Source of the DNA: an uncultured Oscillochloris sp.
GTDB taxonomy: Bacteria > Chloroflexota > Chloroflexia > Chloroflexales > Chloroflexaceae
Assembly (NCBI GenBank): GCA_903920315.1
Contig: CAIXLU010000243.1
Location: 1 to 15,439, forward strand
Length of the DNA stretch: 15,439 bases
Direction of reading: 5' to 3'
The translations under genes were made by a program, and so were the position numbers. Positions 3,016-13,572 of this stretch are shown piece by piece (position 1 is the stretch's first letter; each line of letters begins with the position of its first letter). Below the pieces are notes generated by a model. The model saw nothing but the letters and a program-made list of their open reading frames with translations, was not told the origin of the DNA and searched no databases.

Positions 3016-3465
3016 ATGGATGACGCACAGATCTTCATCACTGTGGCCAGTCAGTCTGGCTACGGTGCCGCAGCGGCGGCGACAGCCTTGGCCTGGGCGC
3101 GAAATCGCCTGAGCGTTGGAGGCGTCGTGCCGTCCCGGCTCTATATTTTTCGTGGGGCCAGCAACAGTAGCGAGGGCACAGGTCAGACACCAAGCTCGCC
3201 TAGCCGCCCGCGTGTACTACTGGCCTTCGCTAGTGCCGACGCAGCCCTAAGCTTTGCTCAGGCCAGCGGGATTGCCGCCGCCCCACGCCTCGCCGCCTTG
3301 AGTATCGAACAGTTGCTCACGGCGCTCATCCAGCGTCCCATGATCACTGCGCTGCTCGTGGCTGATGATGGTGATAGTCCGCATGAGGCGGGCCTGCCCG
3401 CCGGGTTGCGTATTGAACGTGCTGCGCTGCTCGATCAATTGCAGAGTGCAGAGTGCAGATTGTAG
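3016..3465 (+). CDS. Hypothetical protein (149 aa), Ala-rich, with no recognisable domain
   Basis: This is the only long ORF in the region and its GC is typical of coding sequence. The last 8 codons are encoded by the CAGAGT/CAGATTG heptamer array, and the RBS is weak. The ORF is bracketed by a 12-bp direct repeat (see findings). Confidence 0.35.
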   Translation: MDDAQIFITVASQSGYGAAAAATALAWARNRLSVGGVVPSRLYIFRGASNSSEGTGQTPSSPSRPRVLLAFASADAALSFAQASGIAAAPRLAALSIEQLLTALIQRPMITALLVADDGDSPHEAGLPAGLRIERAALLDQLQSAECRL

Positions 3466-3583
3466 ATTGGTCAGCGCATCATCAGTGACGTATTTTGCCG
3501 TAGGGCACGACGTGCTGCCCCTACGGCCATATCGTGTTTGTATCTACAATCTGCGATCATACAATCTGCAATCTACAATCTGG
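3441..3583. repeat. Composite symmetric repeat: a degenerate heptamer array (GCAGAGT GCAGAGT GCAGATT GTAGATT) at 3441-3469, a GC hairpin (CCGTAGGG / CCCTACGG, 8-bp stem) at 3498-3526, and the same heptamer family in inverted orientation with three direct TACAATCTG copies at 3545-3582
   Basis: This was read directly from the sequence. CAGATTGTAGATTG (3456-3469) is the exact reverse complement of CAATCTACAATCTG (3569-3582). TACAATCTG occurs at 3545, 3560 and 3574. Confidence 0.7.
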
Positions 3584-3592
3584 AGGGGTGCT

Positions 3593-4594
3593 ATGGGGAG
3601 CCGGTTCGATGAACTGCGGATCTTTGCGGGGAACGGGAACACCGCCCTTGCCCACGCGATATGCCACCGTATCAATGTGCCGCTTGGCGATGCGACGATT
3701 GTGAAGTTTAGTAATGAGAATATTTTTATTAAGCTGAATGAAAGCGTGCGCGAGAAGGATGTCTTTGTGGTGCAGTCGCTCTCGGCACCAAACCTGAGCG
3801 ACCGAATTATGGAACTGCTGATTATGATGGATGCCTGTAAGCGGGCCTCAGCAGGGCGGATTACGGCGGTCATCCCGTACTACGCCTACGGGCGCACCGA
3901 TAAACGCGATCAGCCGCGTGTGCCGATTACCGCTCGCTTGCTCGCTGATATGATCCAGGTCGCCGGTGCCCATCAGGTACTCACTATTGATCTGCACGCT
4001 GGGCAGATCCAGGGCTTCTTCAACATTCCCACCGACGAACTGACCGCGATGCACCTGCTGGTGCGCTACTTTGCTGACAAGGGGTGGGACGACACCATTG
4101 TTGTTTCGCCTGATGTCGGCTTTGCCAAGCGGGCGCGCAATTTTGCCGAGGCGCTCGGTGCGCCCCTGGCCATCGCCGAAAAGCGCCGTGTGCAGCACTT
4201 TGGCCGTAGCGACGGCGGCAGCCTGACCTCGCCCGAGATCTTGAATTTGATCGGCGATGTGGCTGGCAAGCGCTGCATCCTGGTGGATGACGAGATCGCC
4301 ACCGGCGGATCAATGCTTGAGGTCATCGGACTCCTTGAGCGCGAGGGTGCCCGCGAGATTTACGCGAGCTGTGTTCATGCGGTGTTGGCAGGCAACGCGG
4401 TTGAGCGCTTGCGCAACAGTTCGCTTAAAGAGTTGGTCACCACCGACACCCTGCCCCTGCCAGCGGAGAAGCGCTGGCCCGAACTGACGGTTCTTAGCGT
4501 GAGCCACCTGATCGCCGAGGTGATCCAGCGCATCCACAGCGGCATCTCGGTGGATACAATCTTCCAGCAGCGCAACCACCCGGCGCTGGGGTGA
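3593..4594 (+). CDS. prs: Ribose-phosphate pyrophosphokinase (PRPP synthetase)
   Basis: 333 aa starting at MGSRFDELRIFAGNGN; the long upstream extension in the ORF track is non-coding. It has hallmark Prs motifs: DLHAGQIQGFF, VVSPDVGFAKRARNFAE and the PRPP-binding loop ILVDDEIATGGSM. An RBS GGAGGGG lies 4-10 nt upstream. Confidence 0.92.
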   Translation: MGSRFDELRIFAGNGNTALAHAICHRINVPLGDATIVKFSNENIFIKLNESVREKDVFVVQSLSAPNLSDRIMELLIMMDACKRASAGRITAVIPYYAYGRTDKRDQPRVPITARLLADMIQVAGAHQVLTIDLHAGQIQGFFNIPTDELTAMHLLVRYFADKGWDDTIVVSPDVGFAKRARNFAEALGAPLAIAEKRRVQHFGRSDGGSLTSPEILNLIGDVAGKRCILVDDEIATGGSMLEVIGLLEREGAREIYASCVHAVLAGNAVERLRNSSLKELVTTDTLPLPAEKRWPELTVLSVSHLIAEVIQRIHSGISVDTIFQQRNHPALG

Positions 4595-4601
4595 TGTGAG
4601 A

Positions 4602-4660
4602 ATAGCCGATAGCCGATAGCCGATAGCCGATAGCCGATAGCCGATAGCCGATAGCCGATA
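4602..4660 (+). repeat. Heptamer short tandem repeat (ATAGCCG) x 8.4, immediately after the prs stop codon
   Basis: Eight perfect tandem units plus a partial ATA are visible. The array is preceded by GGTGATGTGAGA, which contains the prs TGA stop codon. Confidence 0.9.
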
Positions 4661-4661
4661 C

Positions 4662-4747
4662 AGCAATCCTCTTGGATCCGTGAAGGAGAGTCAAGGCTTC
4701 AGCCGACTAAAGCCTTGACTCCCCTTCACGGATCCAAGAGGATTGCT
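4662..4747. repeat. Very long hairpin / inverted repeat with two 38-nt arms (1 mismatch) and a 10-nt loop CAGCCGACTA
   Basis: The left arm AGCAATCCTCTTGGATCCGTGAAGGAGAGTCAAGGCTT (4662-4699) is the reverse complement of the right arm (4710-4747) except for one position. No T-tract follows it. Confidence 0.85.
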
Positions 4748-4866
4748 ATACCAACAGGCGGTGATGATTCTTCCCCATGTGTTCGTAATAAGCGTATACT
4801 ATACTCTGATCGTACCCACCGACCCACGTCGTTATTATCGGCTTTTGTCGTTGTGAGGAGAGATCT

Positions 4867-5538
4867 ATGAGCACACAGACCTGCCCAACATGTGATGCCC
4901 CTCTGCCCATAAACGCTCGCTTCTGCTCCAATTGCGGCCACGTCATTGCTCAGACCAATGAGACAGTATCACTCACCACACCGCAACCCCCAGTCCAGAC
5001 TTCGACCCCAAACCCGTATGCGGCGCAACCTCTTGCCCCCCAACAGCCCTACCCGCCACAACCAATGCAGGGACAGCAACCCTACGGTCAGCCGCAGCCC
5101 TACGGTCAGCCACAGCAGCCCTATGGTCAGCCGCAGCCCTACGGTCAGCCACAGCAGCCCTATGGCCAGCCGCAGCCCTATGGCCAGCCGCAGCCCTATG
5201 GCCAGCCGCAGCCCTACGGCCAGCCGCAGCCCTATGGCCAGCCGCAACAAATCAACGTAGTGGTCAATACAACGGCTCAGGCGGTGGCTCAGGGAAGCCC
5301 AATGGGCGTAGTCATTGTGAAGCAGAAGAGTGTTCTTGTCGCATTCCTGCTGACTTTCTTCTTCGGCCCCCTTGGTATCTTCTACGTGAATGTGGTCGGA
5401 GCGATCATCTTCACCCTCGTGACAATTGTCCTGGGCGTGTTAACATACGGTACCTTTAGCTTTTTGGCCTGGATTATCAGTATGATCTGGGGTGTTGTTG
5501 CCGCGTCGAACTACAACAAAAAGATCATCGTGCGCTGA
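4867..5538 (+). CDS. Zinc-ribbon domain / TM2-like domain membrane protein with a Pro-Gln-rich PYGQPQ repeat linker
   Basis: 223 aa. The N-terminus is a [19 protein letters not shown] zinc ribbon (CxxC-x14-CxxC). The central region has about 11 copies of (Q)PYGQPQ. The C-terminus has two TM helices with the TM2/NINE-like signature [22 protein letters not shown]...W. An RBS GAGGAG lies 6 nt upstream of the ATG. Confidence 0.6.
5080..5247. repeat. In-frame tandem 18-nt (sometimes 21-nt) repeat CCCTACGGTCAGCCGCAG (Q), about 9 units, encoding the PYGQPQ repeats
   Basis: This is a visible nucleotide-level tandem repeat with synonymous variation (TAC/TAT, GGT/GGC). Confidence 0.8.
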
Positions 5539-5565
5539 TGTGAAACATAAGCAGTGGTTTTGCAT

Positions 5566-5609
5566 AAAAAACACGATGGAGGAGGCGAAGCCTCCTCCAT
5601 CGTGTTTTT
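5566..5609. terminator. Bidirectional rho-independent terminator between convergent genes
   Basis: AAAAAA + ACACGATGGAGGAGG (stem) + CGAAG (loop) + CCTCCTCCATCGTGT (stem) + TTTTT. The 15-bp perfect stem is flanked by an A-run on one side and a T-run on the other, so it can terminate transcripts from both the + gene ending at 5538 and the - gene ending at 5650. Confidence 0.85.
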
Positions 5610-5649
5610 CGCGCTGACCAGCGGCGACGTTACCCCGTTGCCGAGCGAG

Positions 5650-6336
5650 TTATTTTCGGTGTCCGAGAATATATCCGATCAGGAAGGCGACGATCACCCA
5701 GGGCAACCAGGACTGCTCCTTGAGAAAATTCTCCACCGCACCGCGAGCTACATCAGCCTCGCTGAGTTGCTCGTGGGCGGGGACAATGATCACGCGGCGC
5801 TCGAAGCTGGGAGCGGGAGATAACTCGGGGACGACCACCTCAACCGGCGCGGGAGCAGCGACCGGCTCCATCTCAACGGGGGCGAGTTCGCCGCTGCGGC
5901 GGGATTCGATCAGGTCTGCTAGAGCCTTCAGGTTTTGATTGATCAACGTCTTCGCCGCACCGTCAATCAGGCGCTGCCCCACACTCGCAATCGCGCCGCC
6001 AATATGGGCCTCGCCGCCATAGTCGAGGATTGTTGTGCTGCCCTCATCACGCAGCTTGATGGTGCCAGTACCCTTGAGAAAACCGTTGCTGCCCTTACCC
6101 TCAACATGAATCGCATAGGACTCAGGAGTGACAAGGTTGTCAATCTTCACACGACCGTGGTAGACGCCACGCACCGCATGAAGGGCAATTTTCACAGTCG
6201 TCTCATACTCATCGTCACCGACATGGTCAAGGTGCTGACAGCCTGGAATGGCCCGTGCCATCACCTCAGGGTTCCTAATCGCCGACCAGACTTCCTCACG
6301 GGTGGCCTCGAAGGTGTAGTTTCCTGCAATCCTCAC
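5650..6336 (-). CDS. coxG: CoxG-like SRPBCC-family protein (carbon monoxide dehydrogenase subunit G family) with a C-terminal membrane anchor
   Basis: 229 aa from a GTG start (VRIAGNYTFEATREEVWSAIRNPEVMARAIPGCQHL...), which matches the CoxG family N-terminus. An RBS AAGGAG lies 5 nt upstream of the GTG. The longer ORF extension back to 6531 runs through an AT-rich, low-GC region and is probably not translated. The C-terminus has a hydrophobic helix WLPWVIVAFLIGYILG followed by HRK. Confidence 0.65.
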   Translation of the reverse strand: MRIAGNYTFEATREEVWSAIRNPEVMARAIPGCQHLDHVGDDEYETTVKIALHAVRGVYHGRVKIDNLVTPESYAIHVEGKGSNGFLKGTGTIKLRDEGSTTILDYGGEAHIGGAIASVGQRLIDGAAKTLINQNLKALADLIESRRSGELAPVEMEPVAAPAPVEVVVPELSPAPSFERRVIIVPAHEQLSEADVARGAVENFLKEQSWLPWVIVAFLIGYILGHRK

Positions 6337-6647
6337 AGATGCTCCTTCGTCGGCAACCCGACGACGCACACACAACACGCGAAGCGGCGGTGCAGCATCG
6401 CGTGGTATTGATACACTGGTGAATATAATATTAATACTCTTGGATACAGTCATCGTACCTGAAGCCCATTCCCTTATCAAAATAGGTATGACAGTAAACC
6501 AGGGTTGGTTCCCATGCCTTACCCACATCATCTGCTACAATAGCTCTGTTGAACACGCATCTGCATAGCGGGTGCGGTGTTCCAAATCTAACACCTGAAA
6601 CCTCGTCATAGTGCCTTAATCTTACACGTGGAAGTGAGATAGAGAAC

Positions 6648-7598
6648 ATGATCACAACACTCCAGAAAAAGATCGGTGACCCGCAGCAGTCGGTGACGCT
6701 CTATGGCTCAACCCCGCCCCGTGCGGGCGCATCGGCAGAGGTGTGTTCCAGAGCAGCGGCGCGTCTGGCTGAGCATGTGCGCGATTGTGGACTCGACGGA
6801 CTGGTGGTCTACGATGTGCAAGATGAGCAGGAGCGCACCAGTGAGCCTCGGCCCTTCCCCTATCAACCAACGATTGAGCCACGTATCTACGCCCACCTGC
6901 TTCAGGAACACACGGGATTAGCGACGATTACCTACAAGAGCGTGGGCACTCTGAGCGAGCCGGCGTGGCTCGACTGGCTGAAGCAGGCGCATCAGAGCTA
7001 CGGCCTTGGAATGCTCACCCTTGTGGGCTCTGCTACGCCTAACCCGCCGCCGGATGCGCTCTCCGCTGACCGGGCCATGCAGCTTGCGCGCACGCACGCC
7101 CCACACGTTATGCTGGGCGGTGTGATGATCGCCGAGCGCCATACTCCAGCCTACCGCGAGAGCCAGCGGCTGATCGCCAAGGCTACCCAGGGCAGCCGCT
7201 TTTTTGTCTCACAGGTAGTGTACGATCCTGAGCCGACCGCCCGGTTGCTCACCGATTACGCCCAGGATTGCCGACAGCATGGGGTGACGCCGCAGCGCAT
7301 TATCCTGACCTTCTCGCCCTGCGGGCGACCCGCCACGATGACGTTCCTGAAGTGGCTGGGCGTGGCCATGCCCCCAGCGACTGAGCAGGCTATTCTGGGC
7401 GACTCGGCCCCCTTCACGAAGTCTATCCAGATCTGTTGTGCAAACCTCGCGATTCTGACCGAAGTCGCCGCCGCCGAGAGGATTCCGCTGGGGATTAATA
7501 TCGAGAGCGTTTCGATCCATAAGGATGAACTGGCCGCCTCGATTGAACTAGTTCAGGCTCTGCGTGCGGTGGCAACCCCGCATTCGCATGCGGACTAA
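6648..7598 (+). CDS. Methylenetetrahydrofolate reductase (MetF/MTHFR)-family protein, divergent
   Basis: 316 aa. The segment KATQGSRFFVSQVVYDPEPTARLLTDYAQDCRQHGVTPQRIILTFSPCGRPATMTFLKWLGVAMP follows the MetF pattern GA.RAITQ.FFD......F.......G..V.IIPGI.P......F......V.IP. The N-terminal TIM-barrel-like region is consistent. The family assignment comes from motif recall, not a search. Confidence 0.5.
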   Translation: MITTLQKKIGDPQQSVTLYGSTPPRAGASAEVCSRAAARLAEHVRDCGLDGLVVYDVQDEQERTSEPRPFPYQPTIEPRIYAHLLQEHTGLATITYKSVGTLSEPAWLDWLKQAHQSYGLGMLTLVGSATPNPPPDALSADRAMQLARTHAPHVMLGGVMIAERHTPAYRESQRLIAKATQGSRFFVSQVVYDPEPTARLLTDYAQDCRQHGVTPQRIILTFSPCGRPATMTFLKWLGVAMPPATEQAILGDSAPFTKSIQICCANLAILTEVAAAERIPLGINIESVSIHKDELAASIELVQALRAVATPHSHAD

Positions 7599-7608
7599 CT
7601 AGGCTAAA

Positions 7609-7626
7609 ATAGCCGATAGCCGATAG
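7609..7626 (+). repeat. Heptamer repeat (ATAGCCG) x 2.6, 10 nt after the stop of the MetF-like gene
   Basis: AAAATAGCCGATAGCCGATAGTTGG. Same unit and orientation as the array at 4602. Confidence 0.8.
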
Positions 7627-7794
7627 TTGGGCATCAGCGACCATTTTCATTGGATGTTGTGCGCGAATCGCATGGACATCTGATGCACAAGACAAGATTC
7701 GCAGACGCTTTACAGTTCAGGCCAGAATGTGGCATCCTGATGCGCTCGACCTGAAACCTAAAACCTCGCACCTGAAACCTTGTCCAACAGCACT

Positions 7795-9099
7795 ATGCGC
7801 AACTCCCTGCACATCCAGCTTGAACGACTCGCCAGCGACCGCTGGGCACGGCGCGGCGTCCGTATTCTCATGCGCTCGGTTTGGCTGGGTCTCTCGCTCT
7901 GCTGCCTGATGCTTGGCGTCAGTCTGTTCCTCGATGTGACACCGCCCTGGCAGTGGGTTCTCGCCCTCGGCCTGATCTGCATTGCGGGTGGGGCGATCTT
8001 CATTCTGCGCCCGCGTATGTCGGCGGTTGAGGTGGCTCGGCGGCTCGACCGGCGCTTTCGTCTGAATGAGCAGATCGCCACAGCCCTGGAGATTGACTCC
8101 GCACCGACCGGGATTGAGGTCTATCTACTTGATGAGTCGCGCCGTGCGGTTGGCCAGATCCGCCGCAGCGTTGCGCAGCGCCGGGGCTTTCCCTGGAGCG
8201 AGGCGGCGATGATCCTGGCCCTGCTGATCACCCTCGGCGGTCTGGCGGTTATGCTAGGGATCGGCACAGCCAATCCGCTGGCTGCGCCCGAGCCTCTGCC
8301 CGGATTAGCCACGCCCCAGAGCCTGGCGAATGCCTTCCCGACTGAGCCAGTGAGCACACCGAGCAGTCAGCAACCCAGCCCCGACTCTCGTAATGCCGCC
8401 GCTCCCGGTGCCGGCGACCCTGCGGTGATGCGCGCCCTCGCCAACGCTCTTCGCGACCAGAGCATTACCCGTCAGGCAGCAGAGGCTCTTGATCAGGGCA
8501 ACCTCGCCGGAGCTGCCCAAAACCTGCGCGCTCTCGCCGATCAGGCTGGGCGGATCTCGCAGTCGGCTCGCAACGACCTGGGTACCGCCCTGCGTCAGGC
8601 GGCCAGTCAGGTGCAGGCCAGCAGCCCCGATCTGGCCGACCAACTGCGCACTAGTGCCGCCGGTCTCCAGTCCGGCAATGATTCGCAGGCAGCCCAGTCT
8701 CTTCAGGATCTGGCGGGTGCGGTCGAGAAGATGGGTTCTGGCCAAGCCTCCCAGACGGGGGCGGGTCAACAGCCCGGCAGTACCCAAGATTCGAGCCAGA
8801 CGAACGGCCAGGGACAAGGCGGCGGAGCCGGTAACTCAAGCCTGCCCGGCGGCGAGCAGCGCGAACAACCTGCTGATCGGCTCGGCATTGATGGTGTGCC
8901 GCTTGATCTTAATGCCAAGGGCGATGGCACCGCCGCCACTCAGGGTCAGGCCAACAGCAATGCCGGTGGTACCGGTAATAGCGGCGCCTTCTCGCAGGGT
9001 GAGTCAAACCCCAGCACCGACCCGGTGCTGGCAGCCGACGATCCCCTGCGCATTCCAACGGATCTGCGAGATGTGGTTCAAGACTATTTTTCGCCATAG
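7795..9099 (+). CDS. Hypothetical membrane protein: 3 TM helices followed by a long Ala/Gln/Ser/Gly-rich low-complexity domain
   Basis: 434 aa starting from ATG 7795 (MRNSLHIQ...). The ORF track starts at TTG 7780, which has no RBS. TM helices are at about residues 28-50, 54-75 and 140-165. A periodic A/L/Q-rich coiled-coil-like region is followed by a Q/G/S/N-rich disordered tail ending in DYFSP. The last 29 nt overlap the start of the downstream DUF58 gene. Confidence 0.6.
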   Translation: MRNSLHIQLERLASDRWARRGVRILMRSVWLGLSLCCLMLGVSLFLDVTPPWQWVLALGLICIAGGAIFILRPRMSAVEVARRLDRRFRLNEQIATALEIDSAPTGIEVYLLDESRRAVGQIRRSVAQRRGFPWSEAAMILALLITLGGLAVMLGIGTANPLAAPEPLPGLATPQSLANAFPTEPVSTPSSQQPSPDSRNAAAPGAGDPAVMRALANALRDQSITRQAAEALDQGNLAGAAQNLRALADQAGRISQSARNDLGTALRQAASQVQASSPDLADQLRTSAAGLQSGNDSQAAQSLQDLAGAVEKMGSGQASQTGAGQQPGSTQDSSQTNGQGQGGGAGNSSLPGGEQREQPADRLGIDGVPLDLNAKGDGTAATQGQANSNAGGTGNSGAFSQGESNPSTDPVLAADDPLRIPTDLRDVVQDYFSP

Positions 9100-10042
9100 G
9101 CGTCAACCACCAGCCAATAACCGCCAGCCAACGGGCGGGGGTCGTCGTCCTGAGCGCAACGAAGGGCCGCTCTTCGATGAGGCGTTTTTGCGGCGTGTGG
9201 AGCGTATGAGCCTCCAGGCGCAGCGTACCCTGCGTGGCAATCCATCGAGCGGCGAACACCCGAGCCGTCACCAAATTCCGACCAGCATTTTTAGCGACCA
9301 CCGGCCCTACACCAGTGGCGACGATCTGCGTTATGTTGACTGGAATGCCTACGCTCGCCAGAACCATGTGTTGCTACGACTCGGTGAAGCCGAGCAGGAT
9401 GTGAATGTTCATCTCCTGCTTGACGCCTCGCGAAGTATGGCGGCGAGCAACTCGCAGCGCATGCGCCGCGCCCAGCAGCTTGTCGGTACACTTGGCTACC
9501 TGGCCCTGGCCCACAGTGATCGCCTCCAAATTGTGCCTTTTGGCTCAGCCGCCATGCCCGCCTTCGGGCCAACCCAGGGCAAGGCGCGCCTGATCGAGAT
9601 GCTGCGCTTTGTTGAGAACCTCACGCCACAGCCCGCAACCAGCCTGACCGCCGTGATCCGGCAGCACGCCGTGAGCCATCCCCGGGGTGGCCTGATGGTG
9701 ATCTGCTCTGACCTGCTTGCCCCCGATGGTCTGGCTGAGGCACTGGCGACCCTTGCCCCGCCCCGCTGGCAGGTTCTGGTGCTGCACATGCTCAGCCCCG
9801 ACGATCTCCAGCCCAGCACAGAGGGGCCGCTTGAACTAGAGGACAGTGAGACCGGCCAGCGCATGGAGATCATCCTGGACGACGAGACCCTGGCGGCATA
9901 CCGCAAGAGCGTGGCCCACTGGCGCGAGGGATTGGCCAAAGCCTGTACCCGCCGGGGTGCCACCTACGCCCCGATCATGAGCAACTGGCCCCTGGAACAG
10001 CAGGTGGTGCCCTACCTACGCTCCCGGCGGCTGTTGCATTAG
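9071..10042 (+). CDS. DUF58 family protein (vWA-fold, usually the partner of a MoxR AAA+ ATPase)
   Basis: 323 aa from ATG 9071. The ORF-track N-terminus from 8489 is a shadow frame inside the upstream gene. The DUF58 signature is present: LRRVERMSLQAQRTLRG...HPSRHQIPTSIFSDHRPYTSGDDLRYVDWNAYAR. A vWA MIDAS-like DASRS motif is also present (LLLDASRSMAAS). Confidence 0.75.
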   Translation: MWFKTIFRHRRQPPANNRQPTGGGRRPERNEGPLFDEAFLRRVERMSLQAQRTLRGNPSSGEHPSRHQIPTSIFSDHRPYTSGDDLRYVDWNAYARQNHVLLRLGEAEQDVNVHLLLDASRSMAASNSQRMRRAQQLVGTLGYLALAHSDRLQIVPFGSAAMPAFGPTQGKARLIEMLRFVENLTPQPATSLTAVIRQHAVSHPRGGLMVICSDLLAPDGLAEALATLAPPRWQVLVLHMLSPDDLQPSTEGPLELEDSETGQRMEIILDDETLAAYRKSVAHWREGLAKACTRRGATYAPIMSNWPLEQQVVPYLRSRRLLH

Positions 10043-10055
10043 GGCGGACGTGAAG

Positions 10056-10083
10056 ATAGCCGATAGCCGATAGCCGATAGCCG
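10056..10083 (+). repeat. Heptamer repeat (ATAGCCG) x 4, 13 nt after the DUF58 stop
   Basis: GACGTGAAG + 4 perfect units. It is flanked on both sides by CGGACGT (10045-10051 and 10082-10088). Confidence 0.85.
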
Positions 10084-10107
10084 GACGTAACGGCCTCGAT
10101 CCTCTGG

Positions 10108-10136
10108 TTGACAGCCCGGCAGGCGCGTGCTATTGT
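10108..10136 (+). promoter_or_regulatory. Sigma70-type promoter TTGACA-17bp-TATTGT upstream of proC
   Basis: A perfect -35 TTGACA (10108-10113) and a -10-like TATTGT (10131-10136) are separated by a 17-nt spacer. The element lies about 40 nt upstream of the proC ATG. Confidence 0.4.
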
Positions 10137-10173
10137 CGCCACAGTGAGGCGTATTTACACACTTCTAGGATAT

Positions 10174-10992
10174 ATGCTTAAAGATCTGAAAATCTCTGTG
10201 ATCGGGGCGGGGGCGATGGGCGAGGCGATCATCGGCGGTTTGCTGCGGCAGGAATTGGTGTCGGCTGAGCAGGTGCTGGCGACCGATCTGCAGGAAGATC
10301 ACCTGCGCAAACTACAGGCTCGCTACGGGATACAGACGGGCTTGGATAATGTCGCTGCGATCCAGTGGGGCCAGATCGTCATTTTCGCCGTGAAGCCCCA
10401 GCATCTGAAGCAGGTACTCCAGCCCCTGCGCGGTCTGCTACGCAGCGACGTTTTGGTGATCTCGATTGTGGCGGGAGTGACGATCAGCACATTCGCCACC
10501 ATTCTCGATCACCCGGCGGTGGTGCGGAGCATGCCCAACACACCCGCGATGATCGGCGAGGGGATGACGGTCTGGACGACTAGCGAGGCGGTTGGCGAGC
10601 AACAGCGCGGCTGGGCGCGCACGATACTCAGCGCCCTGGGCCACGAGCTGTTTGTGGATAACGAAAACTACCTCGACATGTCCACCGCGCTGAACGGATC
10701 GGGTCCAGCCTACTTCTTCCTGATGATGGAGGCCATGATTGATGCCGGCGTCCACATGGGACTCTCGCGGCCCATCGCCCAGGAATTGGTACTCCAGACG
10801 ATGCTCGGATCGGTGCACTACGCCCAGCAGAGCGGTATGCACCCGGCCCAACTGCGCAACGCCGTCACATCACCCGGCGGAACCACCAGCGCCGCCCTGA
10901 GCGAACTAGAGCGCGGCGGTATCCGTACGGTTCTCTCCGATGCGATCTGGGCCGCGTATCGGCGGTCAGTAGAACTGGGGAAGCAGGGATAG
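10174..10992 (+). CDS. proC: Pyrroline-5-carboxylate reductase
   Basis: 272 aa from MLKDLKISVIGAGAMGEAIIGGLL, a Rossmann GxGxxG fold. It has ProC motifs IFAVKPQ, MPNTPA and GGTTSAALSELE. The upstream part of the ORF-track ORF from 10108 overlaps the promoter and is not coding. Confidence 0.88.
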   Translation: MLKDLKISVIGAGAMGEAIIGGLLRQELVSAEQVLATDLQEDHLRKLQARYGIQTGLDNVAAIQWGQIVIFAVKPQHLKQVLQPLRGLLRSDVLVISIVAGVTISTFATILDHPAVVRSMPNTPAMIGEGMTVWTTSEAVGEQQRGWARTILSALGHELFVDNENYLDMSTALNGSGPAYFFLMMEAMIDAGVHMGLSRPIAQELVLQTMLGSVHYAQQSGMHPAQLRNAVTSPGGTTSAALSELERGGIRTVLSDAIWAAYRRSVELGKQG

Positions 10993-11044
10993 CCCTCATG
11001 TCGGGCTGTCGGTTGGTCTTACCTACGCAAGGAAGGAGATTCCG

Positions 11045-11566
11045 ATGCTCCGCTATCGTATCGTCGTTCTTATTGCTCTCGCCATGCTGGCGATCCTCGC
11101 CCTTCCCACAGGAATCTTGGCTCAGGGAACGACAAGTATCAATGGGGTCGTCTTCCTCAGCGATGCGGCGACACTCCCCAGCAGCGCCGTGATCACGATT
11201 CAGCTCGCCGATGTCACGCAGGCGGGTGTGCCGGCAAAGGTAATCACAGAGCGGGTGTTCAGTACGGGCGGGGCGCAGTCGCCATTTTCATTCAGCCTAC
11301 CCTACAGCCCGCAGCAGATCAGCCAAAATAGCCGCTATATCATCCAGGGGAATATTCGGGTGGCCGGACAGACCCTCTACCGGACAATGGCACCCCATAC
11401 GGTGAGCGCCTCTGGGACCCCATCCAACAACCTCCAGGTGACGATGGTGAAGGTTGCCAATAGCAGTCTGCCCCAGTCGAGCGCGGGGACGCAGCCCCTG
11501 CTGCTGGCCGGTACACTGCTGCTGGCCGCATTCGCTGTTATGGCGCTGAGGCGGCGGTTGATGTGA
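11045..11566 (+). CDS. Secreted/cell-surface hypothetical protein with an N-terminal signal peptide and a C-terminal hydrophobic anchor plus basic tail
   Basis: 173 aa. An RBS AAGGAG lies 5 nt upstream. The signal peptide is MLRYRIVVLIALAMLAILALPTGILAQG. The C-terminus is ...SLPQSSAGTQPLLLAGTLLLAAFAVMALRRRLM. This is the tripartite layout (motif, TM helix, basic tail) typical of C-terminal sorting signals. Confidence 0.6.
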   Translation: MLRYRIVVLIALAMLAILALPTGILAQGTTSINGVVFLSDAATLPSSAVITIQLADVTQAGVPAKVITERVFSTGGAQSPFSFSLPYSPQQISQNSRYIIQGNIRVAGQTLYRTMAPHTVSASGTPSNNLQVTMVKVANSSLPQSSAGTQPLLLAGTLLLAAFAVMALRRRLM

Positions 11567-11568
11567 CA

Positions 11569-11582
11569 ATAGCCGATAGCCG
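11569..11582 (+). repeat. Heptamer repeat (ATAGCCG) x 2, 2 nt after the stop codon, between convergent genes
   Basis: TTGATGTGA(stop)CA ATAGCCG ATAGCCG GG. The array lies in a 26-nt gap between the + gene ending at 11566 and the - gene ending at 11593. Confidence 0.75.
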
Positions 11583-11592
11583 GGTATTGTGT

Positions 11593-13572
11593 TCAGCTCC
11601 CCTCTTTCATAAGCCCCTTACGGATCTGGGCGCGCAGGGCGTCGGCCTCGCTACTGGCACCCGTACTCGCTCCGATGCTGCTGTTGGCCGAGACCGCCTC
11701 CATGCGCTCGGAGAGCAGCATCGCCATAAGCCCTTCCATGAGGCTGCCGCTCCCGCCGCCGTTGCTGCCGCCACCGCCAACCACCATACGCGGAACCACA
11801 TCCACGCCCGACTGCTGGATCGCTTCGGCAAAGCGGCTCATTACCTGCTGCGTCACCTGGAACTGGGGGCCACCGTAGGCGCGCACTTTCTCGTCAATGG
11901 CCATGGCCTCGGCGATACCCAGGCGAGCGATCTTCTCGGCCTCGGCCTCGGCTAAGGCGCGGATCTGGGCGGCCTGCTGGAGCGCCCGCTGGTACTCGGC
12001 CTTGCCTTGGTTGCTCTGCACGGTGATGCTTAGCTCCGACTCGGTAAGCAACGTCTGTTGGCGTGCACGCGATTCAGCCTCGCGTAGCTCGCGCTCCTTC
12101 ACCGACGCTCGCTCCTGACGCCCGTAGGTCTCGATCTGCTCCTCGGCAATCTGCCGTGCGCGCAGTTGGGTCAGGATGTCTTCGATCTTGGTGTCACCCT
12201 TACTTGATGTCGGCGTACCGATTAGCACCTCTTCCAGTTCGAGGTTGTAGACCGCGAACTTCTCACGCATCTGCTCGCCCGCCAGCGATTGGATGGTACT
12301 GCGATCCTGGAGCAACTGGATAATCGTGCGGGTCTGGCCGATATTCTTGAAGTAGGCAGCCACCATGGGGTCGAGGGTCTGCTCAACCAGCCGCTTCACG
12401 TCGCCAAAGCGCTGCACCACCAAGGGCGCTTTGCGGTAGTCAATATGGATCACCACCGAGAGCGGCAGAGATGGCTCGAAGGCATCGCGGGTGATCAGGG
12501 CAATCTCCGAGAGGTTCTCGTCGAGTCGGTGGGCACCAATCTCACCCCGAGTCCACTTCAAGATAATATTGGTCGTCGGCACCATGATCATCTTGCCGGC
12601 GTAGGTGTTGAAGGCGTATTTACCTGGCAGCATCGGGGCACTCCAGACACCTCGGCTACCCTGGCGCACCATCTCGCCGTGGGTATAATCCTCACCCGAA
12701 ATATCAGCGCTGGTGTCCCCGGTGTACGAGACGACGACGCCCACACTGCCAACCTCAATGGTCGTCTTGGGGATTGTTTCAATGGTGGCAAAGAGCCGGT
12801 TGATGTAGTAGGTACCCTCGGTAAGCACCTGGAGCTGGCGTCCGCGCTGACCACCCGCACGCAGGAAGGCGTCGGGGTCCTGGAAGTTGTTATGGTACGT
12901 TATCGGCTCTCCCGGATTATCGCCAACGGTCTGACAGATAATCTCACCCTGCGAGAGGGATGGGCCGTCGTGGACGGTGACGATGCCTACGAGGTCATCG
13001 GTACCCTTGATCACCATGGGGAAGAATCCCGCACGCTCGCTGATGATCACGGCCATATGCTTAATGATCTCGTCGTCCTCGCGGCTAAGGGGTAGAGAGA
13101 AGACCCGCTCCTCAGTGATGACCACGAACTGCATAAGGTTGATCGCGTAGGTACCCTCGCGTAGGACGAGGCGCTGGGGGCCGCGCTGGCCTCCGGCCCT
13201 GAGGAATGCCGCCGCATCCTGGAAATCAACGTCGGGGATCGTCTCGGCCAAGGTCTGGGTGGGACTGAGGGCGCGACCGTCGCGGGCGAAGATATAGCCG
13301 ATCTTGCCCTGAGGGATCGTCACCAAGGGCAGCATATGGATGGTGTACTGGAATGGTGTGATCAGATGGATGCCACCACGCAACACCTGGGGCTGGTAGC
13401 CAGCCTCGCCGCCAAGGGCGATCAGGCCCGAGCGCAACGAACCGCGCCCACCGAAGCGCTTTTCAACAACGCCAATACGGTTGTTCGGGATGATGCGAAC
13501 CCAGGAGAAGAACACGATCAGCATGACAACTACGATAATGGTGATGACCACAAGCGAAATGATCCCAGCCAT
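11593..13572 (-). CDS. Flotillin-like SPFH/band-7 family membrane protein (YqiK/FloT-like), long form
   Basis: 659 aa. It has an N-terminal TM helix (IISLVVITIIVVVMLIVFFSW), a flotillin-type N-terminal region (RIGVVEKRFGG...), a C-terminal E/A/R/Q-rich coiled coil and a Gly/Ser tail. An internal duplicated segment is present (D.AAFLRAGGQRG.Q..VL.EGTY.IN occurs twice). An RBS GTGAGGA lies about 7 nt upstream. Confidence 0.8.
   Translation of the reverse strand: MAGIISLVVITIIVVVMLIVFFSWVRIIPNNRIGVVEKRFGGRGSLRSGLIALGGEAGYQPQVLRGGIHLITPFQYTIHMLPLVTIPQGKIGYIFARDGRALSPTQTLAETIPDVDFQDAAAFLRAGGQRGPQRLVLREGTYAINLMQFVVITEERVFSLPLSREDDEIIKHMAVIISERAGFFPMVIKGTDDLVGIVTVHDGPSLSQGEIICQTVGDNPGEPITYHNNFQDPDAFLRAGGQRGRQLQVLTEGTYYINRLFATIETIPKTTIEVGSVGVVVSYTGDTSADISGEDYTHGEMVRQGSRGVWSAPMLPGKYAFNTYAGKMIMVPTTNIILKWTRGEIGAHRLDENLSEIALITRDAFEPSLPLSVVIHIDYRKAPLVVQRFGDVKRLVEQTLDPMVAAYFKNIGQTRTIIQLLQDRSTIQSLAGEQMREKFAVYNLELEEVLIGTPTSSKGDTKIEDILTQLRARQIAEEQIETYGRQERASVKERELREAESRARQQTLLTESELSITVQSNQGKAEYQRALQQAAQIRALAEAEAEKIARLGIAEAMAIDEKVRAYGGPQFQVTQQVMSRFAEAIQQSGVDVVPRMVVGGGGSNGGGSGSLMEGLMAMLLSERMEAVSANSSIGASTGASSEADALRAQIRKGLMKEGS

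Follow-up and report, generated by a model that had tools for sequence, protein, structure and literature searches.

The heptamer ATAGCCG recurs in short tandem arrays just behind protein-coding genes in a 15,439-nt contig of an uncultured Oscillochloris sp. (CAIXLU010000243.1, assembly GCA_903920315.1), which was analysed over its whole length and is hereafter called the window. We consider it somewhat probable that these arrays belong to a lineage-specific, multi-copy repeat of filamentous, Oscillochloridaceae-like Chloroflexales, made of a head, an array and a hairpin, which spreads by copying to gene ends and thereafter changes as a microsatellite does. Dispersed heptamer arrays filled with stop codons have already been described for the unit TAACTGA (PMC4679880), and therefore the kind is not new; the ATAGCCG unit and its head are undescribed. 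A previous inspection of the DNA by itself (the sequence-only reading) had known of no family with this unit, in agreement with the absence of the ATAGCCG repeat string from the literature searched, and had hinted at a new kind, which the TAACTGA precedent contradicts.

Eighteen copies of ATAGCCG are present in the window, all of them on the + strand, where 2.2 would be expected and none of 200 shuffles reaches 18. Sixteen of these copies form four perfect tandem arrays (Tandem Repeats Finder, TRF: period 7 and 100% matches at all four sites), and the other two, isolated at 11328 and 13294, are what chance would yield. The arrays, their heads and partner hairpin, and a fifth, array-less member of the family are the following:

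4592-4601, + strand: head of array 1, TGATGTGAGA; its first TGA (4592-4594) is the stop codon of prs
4602-4660, + strand: array 1, (ATAGCCG)8.4 by TRF, with all units identical
5536-5565, + strand: relic copy without an array; head TGATGTGAAA (5536-5545), whose TGA is the stop codon of a zinc-ribbon gene, followed by CATAAGCAGTGGTTTTGCAT
7596-7608, + strand: degenerate head of array 2, TAACTAGGCTAAA; a 316-aa gene ends at its TAA
7609-7626, + strand: array 2, (ATAGCCG)2.6 by TRF
7630-7685, + strand: T1 hairpin, GGCATCAGCGACCATTTTCATTGGATGTTGTGCGCGAATCGCATGGACATCTGATG, about 56 nt, the usual 3' partner of head and array
10043-10055, + strand: variant head of array 3, GGCGGACGTGAAG, right after the TAG stop codon of a DUF58 gene; positions 10046-10055 read GGACGTGAAG
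10056-10083, + strand: array 3, (ATAGCCG)4 (TRF: 10055-10083, 4.1 units)
11559-11568, + strand: head of array 4, TGATGTGACA; the second TGA in it (11564-11566) ends a gene for a YscW-domain protein
11569-11582, + strand: array 4, (ATAGCCG)2 (TRF: 2.0 units)

All four arrays start close behind a stop codon of the same strand, with 7 nt between the prs stop (TGA, 4592-4594) and array 1 at 4602, 10 nt between the stop of the 316-aa gene (TAA, 7596-7598) and array 2 at 7609, 13 nt between the DUF58 stop (TAG, 10040-10042) and array 3 at 10056, and 2 nt between the YscW-gene stop (TGA, 11564-11566) and array 4 at 11569. The sequence-only reading had thus been right about the positions, unit counts and strand of the arrays, their distance of 2-13 nt from + strand stop codons, the near-identical head in front of three of them, and the two cases where a TGA inside the head is the actual stop, namely the first TGA at prs and the second at the YscW gene. 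It had counted four copies, which stand, and missed the fifth, array-less member at 5536-5565. Two of its gene labels had to change, since the product of the 316-aa gene, named MetF-like, gave no Pfam hit, and the product of the gene before array 4, taken for a secreted protein, has a YscW lipoprotein domain. Counting the relic, family members occupy 5 of the 10 + strand gene ends of the window and none of the 5 gene ends of the - strand. In one 15-kb window, gene orientation is inseparable from replication-strand orientation. A convergent Band7 gene on the - strand has its stop codon (11593-11595) 10 nt from array 4, and a promoter-like site for proC is found at 10108-10136, 3' of array 3.

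The unit contains TAG and its length is not a multiple of 3, so that an array carries forward stops in all three frames and leaves the reverse strand open. This had already been proposed as the origin of artefactual open reading frames (ORFs) on the - strand, and a 118-aa ORF of this type (4310-4666) does traverse array 1.

The family was followed in metagenomes, with a scan that required the head and at least two units, and in genome loci, where the counts given below hold among the matches listed. The closest relatives of the window's prs and proC proteins are from Oscillochloridaceae and other Chloroflexales, and no HIP1 site, sought as a test of cyanobacterial origin, is present in the window; the host is therefore a filamentous Chloroflexales member and not a cyanobacterium. 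The head, with the consensus T(G/A)A(Y)GTGA(A/G)A, is 10 nt long and has stop codons in two reading frames. Head and array were found together at 71 distinct metagenome loci whose upstream 25-mers are all different, with TAACGTGAAA as the head at 34 of them and TGATGTGAAA at 24. Contigs of a single lake metagenome make up 25 of the 71 loci; the same metagenome is the source of L002, a variant of the window with 98.9% identity, and the window locus itself is present in at least five lake-metagenome contigs. Several metagenome-assembled genomes (MAGs) of Oscillochloris type contain many ATAGCCG loci, with a stop codon (TGA/TAA) followed by YGTGA(A/G)A immediately before ATAGCCG at independent loci, and a single MAG can hold several near-identical copies of head, array and hairpin between unrelated flanks.

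The borders of the arrays and what lies behind them are shared as well. Among the matches listed, 29 of 39 Chloroflexales arrays open in the phase ATAGCCG and 23 have an A just before them, while their 3' ends differ in phase; arrays of other phyla begin in scattered phases. Behind the array, MAG loci and array 2 of the window have a common tail, GGCATCAGCG(A/G)CCAT(G/T)TTCATCG...GCATG..., and the T1 module as a whole follows the pattern GGCATCAG...CTGATG over about 56 nt. At least 37 of the 71 head-bearing arrays are followed by a T1-type tail and at least 10 by a second element, T2. In some cases a further head and array stand behind T1, so that units lie in tandem.

Positions 2 and 4 of the head covary in the 71 metagenome loci (L259-L329), which show TGAT in 27 cases, TAAC in 36, TGAC in 7 and TAAT in 1. 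No pairing partner accounting for this covariation was found. Pairing of the head with the CATCAG of the hairpin start, which would enclose the array, was considered and rejected, since the commonest head (TAACG) is left unpaired and no compensating change occurs.

These shared features bear on the simplest alternative, in which the arrays are plain microsatellites born in place by replication slippage and the head is a coincidence or a favoured stop context. Whole-unit length polymorphism would be expected from such a process, and heptamers of many different units dominate the tandem repeats of these genomes. Of all tandem periods, 7 occurs most often in 294 kb of Chloroflexales loci, with 110 arrays, 66 of which have units other than ATAGCCG, and several units recur; over all genome loci retrieved there are 188 perfect arrays of period 7, whereas periods 5, 6 and 8-12 have 0-14 each. 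Moreover, passages of PMC4679880 and PMC4692102, which cite Mrazek 2007, give heptamers as the most abundant long simple repeats in many bacteria and put forward slippage as a hypothesis for their excess, and control heptamers are about as frequent as ATAGCCG in viral contigs. Yet a 14-nt seed joined to a 10-nt head cannot arise independently at 71 loci, and slippage in place leaves the fixed 5' phase and the shared tail of about 56 nt without explanation. The head occurs 26 times in the genome loci against about 14 expected, among the matches listed, and the excess consists of array-linked copies; therefore the head is not a general stop-codon context. We consequently see little chance that this alternative explains the family: it is already contradicted for the head-bearing copies, and it may hold for arrays without a head. 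The opinion of the sequence-only reading that the arrays are not independent microsatellites is borne out by the shared head over stop codons, the fixed phase and the 71 unrelated loci.

The same controls decide how a much wider distribution should be read. Arrays of (ATAGCCG)3 or longer are found in at least ten phyla, among them Gemmatimonadota, Acidobacteriota, Bacteroidota, Verrucomicrobiota and Planctomycetota. In viral contigs, arrays of at least 3 units number 8 for ATAGCCG, 2, 3, 13 and 1 for composition-matched heptamers, and 107 for TAACTGA. As the control heptamers are about as frequent, the wide spread is not taken as evidence for a conserved factor; an explanation by such a factor or by horizontal transfer was rejected on this ground and because no fixed phase, head or sense bias is seen among the matches listed outside Chloroflexales. 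We treat the spread over phyla as background heptamer slippage with a few independent amplifications.

Some of these distant loci have features of their own. Inverted pairs of the form (ATAGCCG)n-spacer-(CGGCTAT)n are common outside the window (L008, L038, L058, L067, L086, L100, L102 and L110, from several phyla) and give long hairpins whose stems are heptamer repeats. Arrays of Gemmatimonadota, Bacteroidota and Acidobacteriota are mixed with the one-base variants GATAGCT, GATGGCC and GACAGCC. L128, an IMG/VR contig classed as viral and derived from the lake metagenome that also holds L002 (3300021602), carries (ATAGCCG)4 on the - strand at about 11026-11053. Behind this array come GGGCATCAGCGAC, with which T1 begins, and CTATCGGCTAT in inverted orientation. 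The contig belongs either to a phage or prophage of this host that has taken up the host repeat or to the host itself, in which case it was misclassified.

The link with stop codons, first suspected from four arrays, can be measured. In the 63 head-bearing loci with enough upstream sequence, the head stop closes an ORF of at least 100 aa in 27 and of at least 200 aa in 21, compared with 6.4% and 1.9%, respectively, per TRA triplet taken anywhere in the same loci. Head stops thus fall on real stop codons about seven to nine times more often than random TRA triplets, and the ORF is ended by the first head stop in 19 loci and by the second in 8. Among the matches listed for the Chloroflexales genome loci, 14 of 26 arrays have a sense gene end between -16 and +15 nt relative to their start, and 1 of the 26 has an antisense gene end alone; in about half of those 14 the stop codon is the TAG of the array itself, which produces C-termini such as ...NSR*. 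The listed matches from other phyla lack a sense bias, with 6 sense-only against 14 antisense-only arrays.

Such an enrichment could come from a mobile or templated insertion that recognises stop codons and whose heptamers come from a short template copied over and over, as by a telomerase, from one constant 5' position. At prs the head stands exactly in place of the stop codon, the 5' phase is fixed while the 3' phase varies, and the young prs array has eight identical units, all of which would suit this idea. We find it improbable nonetheless: there is no consistent target duplication, most copies lie off stop codons, changes in unit number are explained by slippage, and neither a reverse transcriptase nor any other enzyme is linked to the element in the loci, which are pieces of 8-21 kb. 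In addition, selection alone can enrich copies at gene ends, an argument also made for TAACTGA (PMC4679880). Similarly doubtful is a version in which the repeat would be a non-autonomous, stop-codon-directed "gene-end cassette" that enters precisely at a stop codon, gives the gene its new stop and is served by a telomerase-like or other copying enzyme, together with the related idea that the UAG-N4 array would be the platform of a ring-shaped RNA-binding regulator.

The history of individual copies can be read from relatives, as the sequence-only reading had proposed for presence or absence and unit number. L122, whose proC is 93% identical, is fully syntenic with the window from prs to the STAS gene. 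Its prs ends with the same final glycine and a TAG, followed by about 70 nt of unrelated sequence, and homology is resumed at ATACCA(A/T)CAG; head, array 1 and the palindrome that follows it in the window are all absent. The same holds for the element in the four relatives L119-L122, where prs has the same last residue and a TAG or TAA, so that array 1 is known from the window lineage only. In L002, which over 10 kb differs from the window by only two non-coding indels (one more ATAGCCG and one more CAATCTA), array 1 has 9 units instead of 8.

The other gene ends show later states. Behind the 316-aa gene, array and T1 are present in both the window and L122, where the array has 5.6 units, two of them ATAACCG, and the degenerate head TAACTAGGCTAAA is kept with one change. 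The DUF58 array of L122 is longer, lacks a head and stands directly behind TAGGG, with the variants GAGAGCC and GAGAGCT. Head and two units are common to both at the YscW gene; the L122 head is TGATGTGAAA and its array, of almost two units (ATAGCCGATAGCC), is followed by an additional GC-rich hairpin insertion of about 85 nt. The zinc-ribbon gene has an array-less head, TGAYGTGAAACATAAGCAG..., in both (in L122 the form TGACGTGAAACATAAGCAGCGGTTTTCCAT) with sequence like the T1 start next to it, as CATAAGCAGTGGTTTTGCAT in the window also resembles the start of the T1 hairpin. The empty prs site in L122 and the one-unit difference in L002 imply, therefore, that arrays arrive as an insertion or replacement and are then altered by slippage. 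Judging from these alignments, copies would be gained at gene ends, with the head in place of the stop codon, and would then persist, slip, mutate and collect insertions. On the 3' side of the relic, a perfect bidirectional terminator-like hairpin (5568-5609, AAAAACACGATGGAGGAGGC...GCCTCCTCCATCGTGTTTTT) is common to the zinc-ribbon gene and the convergent CoxG gene.

Two pairs of direct repeats, CGGACGT around the array after DUF58 and GGTGATG around array 1 with its hairpin, had been taken for target-site duplications. The repeats exist, whereas their interpretation fails. In a comparison of 33 Chloroflexales and 82 other arrays with permuted flank pairs, direct repeats of at least 7 nt flank 2 of the 33 Chloroflexales arrays against 1.7% of the permuted pairs, with no general signal. 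The right-hand GGTGATG 3' of prs aligns with GGCGCTGAT in L122 and is therefore ancestral sequence; both window repeats were rejected as target-site duplications, with ancestral flank sequence (L122) as their explanation. The ends of the head-array-hairpin unit, AGGGTGACTGATGTGAAA on the left and ...GTCTTTTGCGGTAGTGCGAA on the right, are not inverted copies of each other, and terminal inverted repeats occur only in the two elements that are inserted into arrays. The first of these lies behind array 1:

4662-4747: palindromic insertion of 86 nt, similar to miniature inverted-repeat transposable elements (MITEs), with ATAC duplicated at 4658-4661 and 4748-4751; folding energy -72.7 kcal/mol, z = -14.8

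In L122 ATAC is single at the empty palindrome site. Array and hairpin 3' of prs had been regarded as one unit; with its own ATAC duplication, the palindrome is a separate insertion that does not belong to the array element. L022 has a related copy, with TATAGCAATCC ends, away from any array (1120-1218), and the inner hairpin nested in the palindrome (4688-4721, GAGTCAAGGCTT-N10-AAGCCTTGACTC) stands alone beside an array in another MAG (L046, 665-705). T2 is a MITE-like TACNACAGTTGT element; by our own reading of the listing, roughly 28 of about 36 recognisable T2 ends adjoin ATAGCCG arrays at ATAG, and arrays are thus landing pads for other small elements. A MITE of about 150 nt splits the DUF58 array of L122 (5741-5888), with 12-bp inverted ends (TACGACAGTTGT...ACAACTGTCGTA) and ATAG on either side. 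It has the ends TAC(G/T)ACAGTTGT and an inner CCCCCCCGCAAGCGGGGGGG hairpin, and it lies nearly always inside ATAGCCG arrays at ATAG; further copies are in L023, L079, L111, L270, L277, L284, L287, L298, L310, L319, L324 and L327, a few are at other xTAG/xTAT sites, and none is in the window. Elhai and colleagues are said to have found in 2008 small hairpin mobile elements inside tandem heptamer arrays of Nostoc punctiforme. The TACNACAGTTGT element and the ATAC-flanked palindrome would be a parallel to such nesting, in a different phylum and with different units and inserts. A resemblance of ACGTGAAA / GTGAAACA to parS covered a half-site only and was dropped.

From these observations a simple life cycle can be proposed. 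The full unit comprises the 10-nt head, an (ATAGCCG)n array with TAG in all frames and no fold of its own, and usually the hairpin of about 56 nt. New copies would arise by a copy-and-insert or recombinational process that leaves neither inverted ends nor a target duplication, and those in sense orientation adjoining the 3' end of a gene would survive best. Translation would run only a few codons into head and array before it stops, and an insertion overlapping the end of an ORF would therefore cost a few residues at most; an antisense copy, free of stops, would extend the protein. The array would then grow and shrink by replication slippage. Older copies have units with point mutations or are without the head, and other small palindromic elements enter the arrays or land beside them. 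Most probably the element is selfish or neutral DNA that may have been co-opted as a 3'-end module.

Several facts weigh against this explanation. No transposase is linked to the head-array-hairpin unit in the 8-21-kb loci. Fewer than half of the head-bearing copies sit on the stop of a long ORF, and divergent genes surround some arrays, which also overturns the strict gene-end placement claimed by the sequence-only reading. About three quarters of the Chloroflexales arrays, among the matches listed, are without the canonical GTGA(A/G)A head and may be of other origin. Neither the metagenome scan nor the genome scan is an unbiased census. The orientation of all five window copies on the + strand and the retention of three arrays at orthologous sites since the split from L122 would both fit a function or a replication-strand bias as well.

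Such a function would be that of a module in the 3' untranslated region (3'-UTR) of the mRNA, combining termination in all frames, an unstructured (AUAGCCG)n binding platform and a hairpin that ends or stabilises the transcript; it is compatible with a copied repeat, and we give it a minor though real share of probability. Apart from the retained sites, those of three arrays and the relic, it would agree with the sense orientation relative to the upstream gene and with the behaviour of the array as RNA, array 1 being less structured than all of 200 shuffles (z = +3.2). The UAG-N4-UAG-N4 register of (AUAGCCG)n is that of HutP-type proteins. The T1 tail has hairpin potential, with 80.6% of cells paired in a 15-pair model, and several G-U pairs in its stem, paired by hand, make it workable on the sense strand only; in other genomes, a TCTTTTG run stands behind one T1 subfamily, in the manner of an intrinsic terminator. 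Other heptamer families of the same genomes are also position-specific, just before Shine-Dalgarno or start sites. Against a function, the covariation of the T1 pairs does not exceed that of shuffles in the 15-pair model and RNAalifold retains only a 6-bp invariant stem, two of the four window arrays have no hairpin, and a terminator scan found nothing at or just after any of the four. Four relatives do without the prs copy and show no sign of needing it, units vary freely in number and sequence, and insertions of 86-150 nt are tolerated in arrays. Rfam 15 gave no match at the arrays or the T1 hairpin, and its sub-threshold generic hairpin matches are confined to the palindrome (4663-4746).

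A repeat copied between gene ends has relatives in kind among known systems. The sequence-only reading had compared it with the STRR of heterocystous cyanobacteria, which reportedly have the units CCCCAGT, TTGGTCA and CAACAGT, as Mazel and co-workers are said to have described in 1990. The likeness is apt: both are tandem heptamer families in the intergenic DNA of a filamentous phototroph, and both break assemblies and fingerprint strains. They differ in the unit and in the Chloroflexales host, and no stop-overlapping head is reported for STRR. A further relative in kind is TAACTGA of marine Beggiatoaceae, some Cyanobacteria and Bacteroidetes (MacGregor 2015, PMC4679880), with 2-6 units, occasionally long arrays, at more than 100 intergenic sites. 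As with ATAGCCG, one heptamer is dispersed with a strong orientation bias to the neighbouring gene, forward stops and an open reverse strand; its RNA lacks structure, indels of 7 nt distinguish strains, further heptamers occur among the arrays, and contigs break there. TAACTGA arrays occupy 169 sites just upstream of start codons, and the argument from stops in the forward frames was made there (PMC4679880); ATAGCCG arrays differ from them by their unit, by their phylum, Chloroflexota, and by lying on or a few nt after stop codons, where TAACTGA sets of the reference genome precede start codons by a few nt. Neither a hairpin tail nor a conserved head outside the repeat was described for TAACTGA (PMC4679880).

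The GGGAATC / GGGGAYT arrays of Xanthomonas and Nostoc (Rehm et al. 2015, PMC4692102), about 180 intergenic arrays per genome, are found between the same gene pairs in related species with variable length and sequence, some as inverted pairs. They are G-rich and quadruplex-forming, with no stop-codon association reported (PMC4692102), whereas ATAGCCG cannot form quadruplexes. With REP/BIME, REPIN (PMC3116915) and MITE elements the unit has in common a length of about 80-130 nt, presence/absence polymorphism, unrelated flanks and empty orthologous sites, and it may share with them a hairpin, an extragenic position past gene ends and single or tandem occurrence. Unlike them, it has no terminal inverted repeats or target duplication, contains an internal microsatellite and has no RAYT or transposase linked to it in the 8-21-kb pieces; nor was the doublet architecture of REPINs seen with the T1 module.

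Dispersed heptamer repeats, which outnumber all other long simple repeats in many bacteria, have been known since 1990 (STRR). In the present family the conserved head and tail are not themselves repeats, so that copies can be recognised, aligned and dated; its fixed 5' phase, the measurable link to stop codons and the states of gain, loss and decay between relatives are handles beyond those of earlier families. The lineage is abundant in lake metagenomes, and in it one can test whether copies move between sites or are born in place, and whether anything binds them. The arrays also have practical consequences: assemblies break at the arrays and several contigs end inside them, false - strand ORFs are called, called gene ends are shifted (...NSR*), and the arrays serve as landing pads for small mobile elements.

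Besides the ATAGCCG arrays, the window holds three arrays of other heptamers:

3438-3469: ATTGCAG/AGTGCAG array, which supplies the TAG stop codon of a 149-aa gene
3542-3582: ATCTRCA array, inverted (reverse-complement family of ATTGCAG/AGTGCAG), adjoining the GGAGG Shine-Dalgarno sequence of prs
7749-7780: ACCTGAA/ACCTAAA array, ending 16 nt before the ATG of a 434-aa gene

The first two can pair around a central hairpin at about 3496-3530 (fold z = -3.1), and they occupy the same places in L119 (prs 92% identical), with about 300 nt more between them. It is the AATCTRC array that has one CAATCTA unit more in L002 than in the window. The ACCTGAA/ACCTAAA array is identical in L122 (3398-3429). 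The lineage may thus have position-specific heptamer families, one type at 3' ends and another in 5' leaders.

A few sequences of repeat character remain to be mentioned. The TAG stop codon of proC lies inside ATAGCCC, in the 5' arm of a terminator-like hairpin at 10988-11010 (GATAGCCC-TCATGTC-GGGCTGTC, then GGTTGGTCTT). In L122 (about 6815-6840) the 3' arm of this hairpin is GGGCTATCGG and corresponds to the repeat unit in reverse complement; from this resemblance the hairpin at the proC end may be a decayed inverted pair of units. Coding repeats are also present: the zinc-ribbon protein has an in-frame 18/39-nt repeat of the QPYGQP type within 5073-5246, and the Bmp/PnrA-like lipoprotein an in-frame 12-nt repeat in its N-terminal part (1124-1257). 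Both vary by indels of whole units (18 nt and 12 nt) among near-identical metagenome strains.

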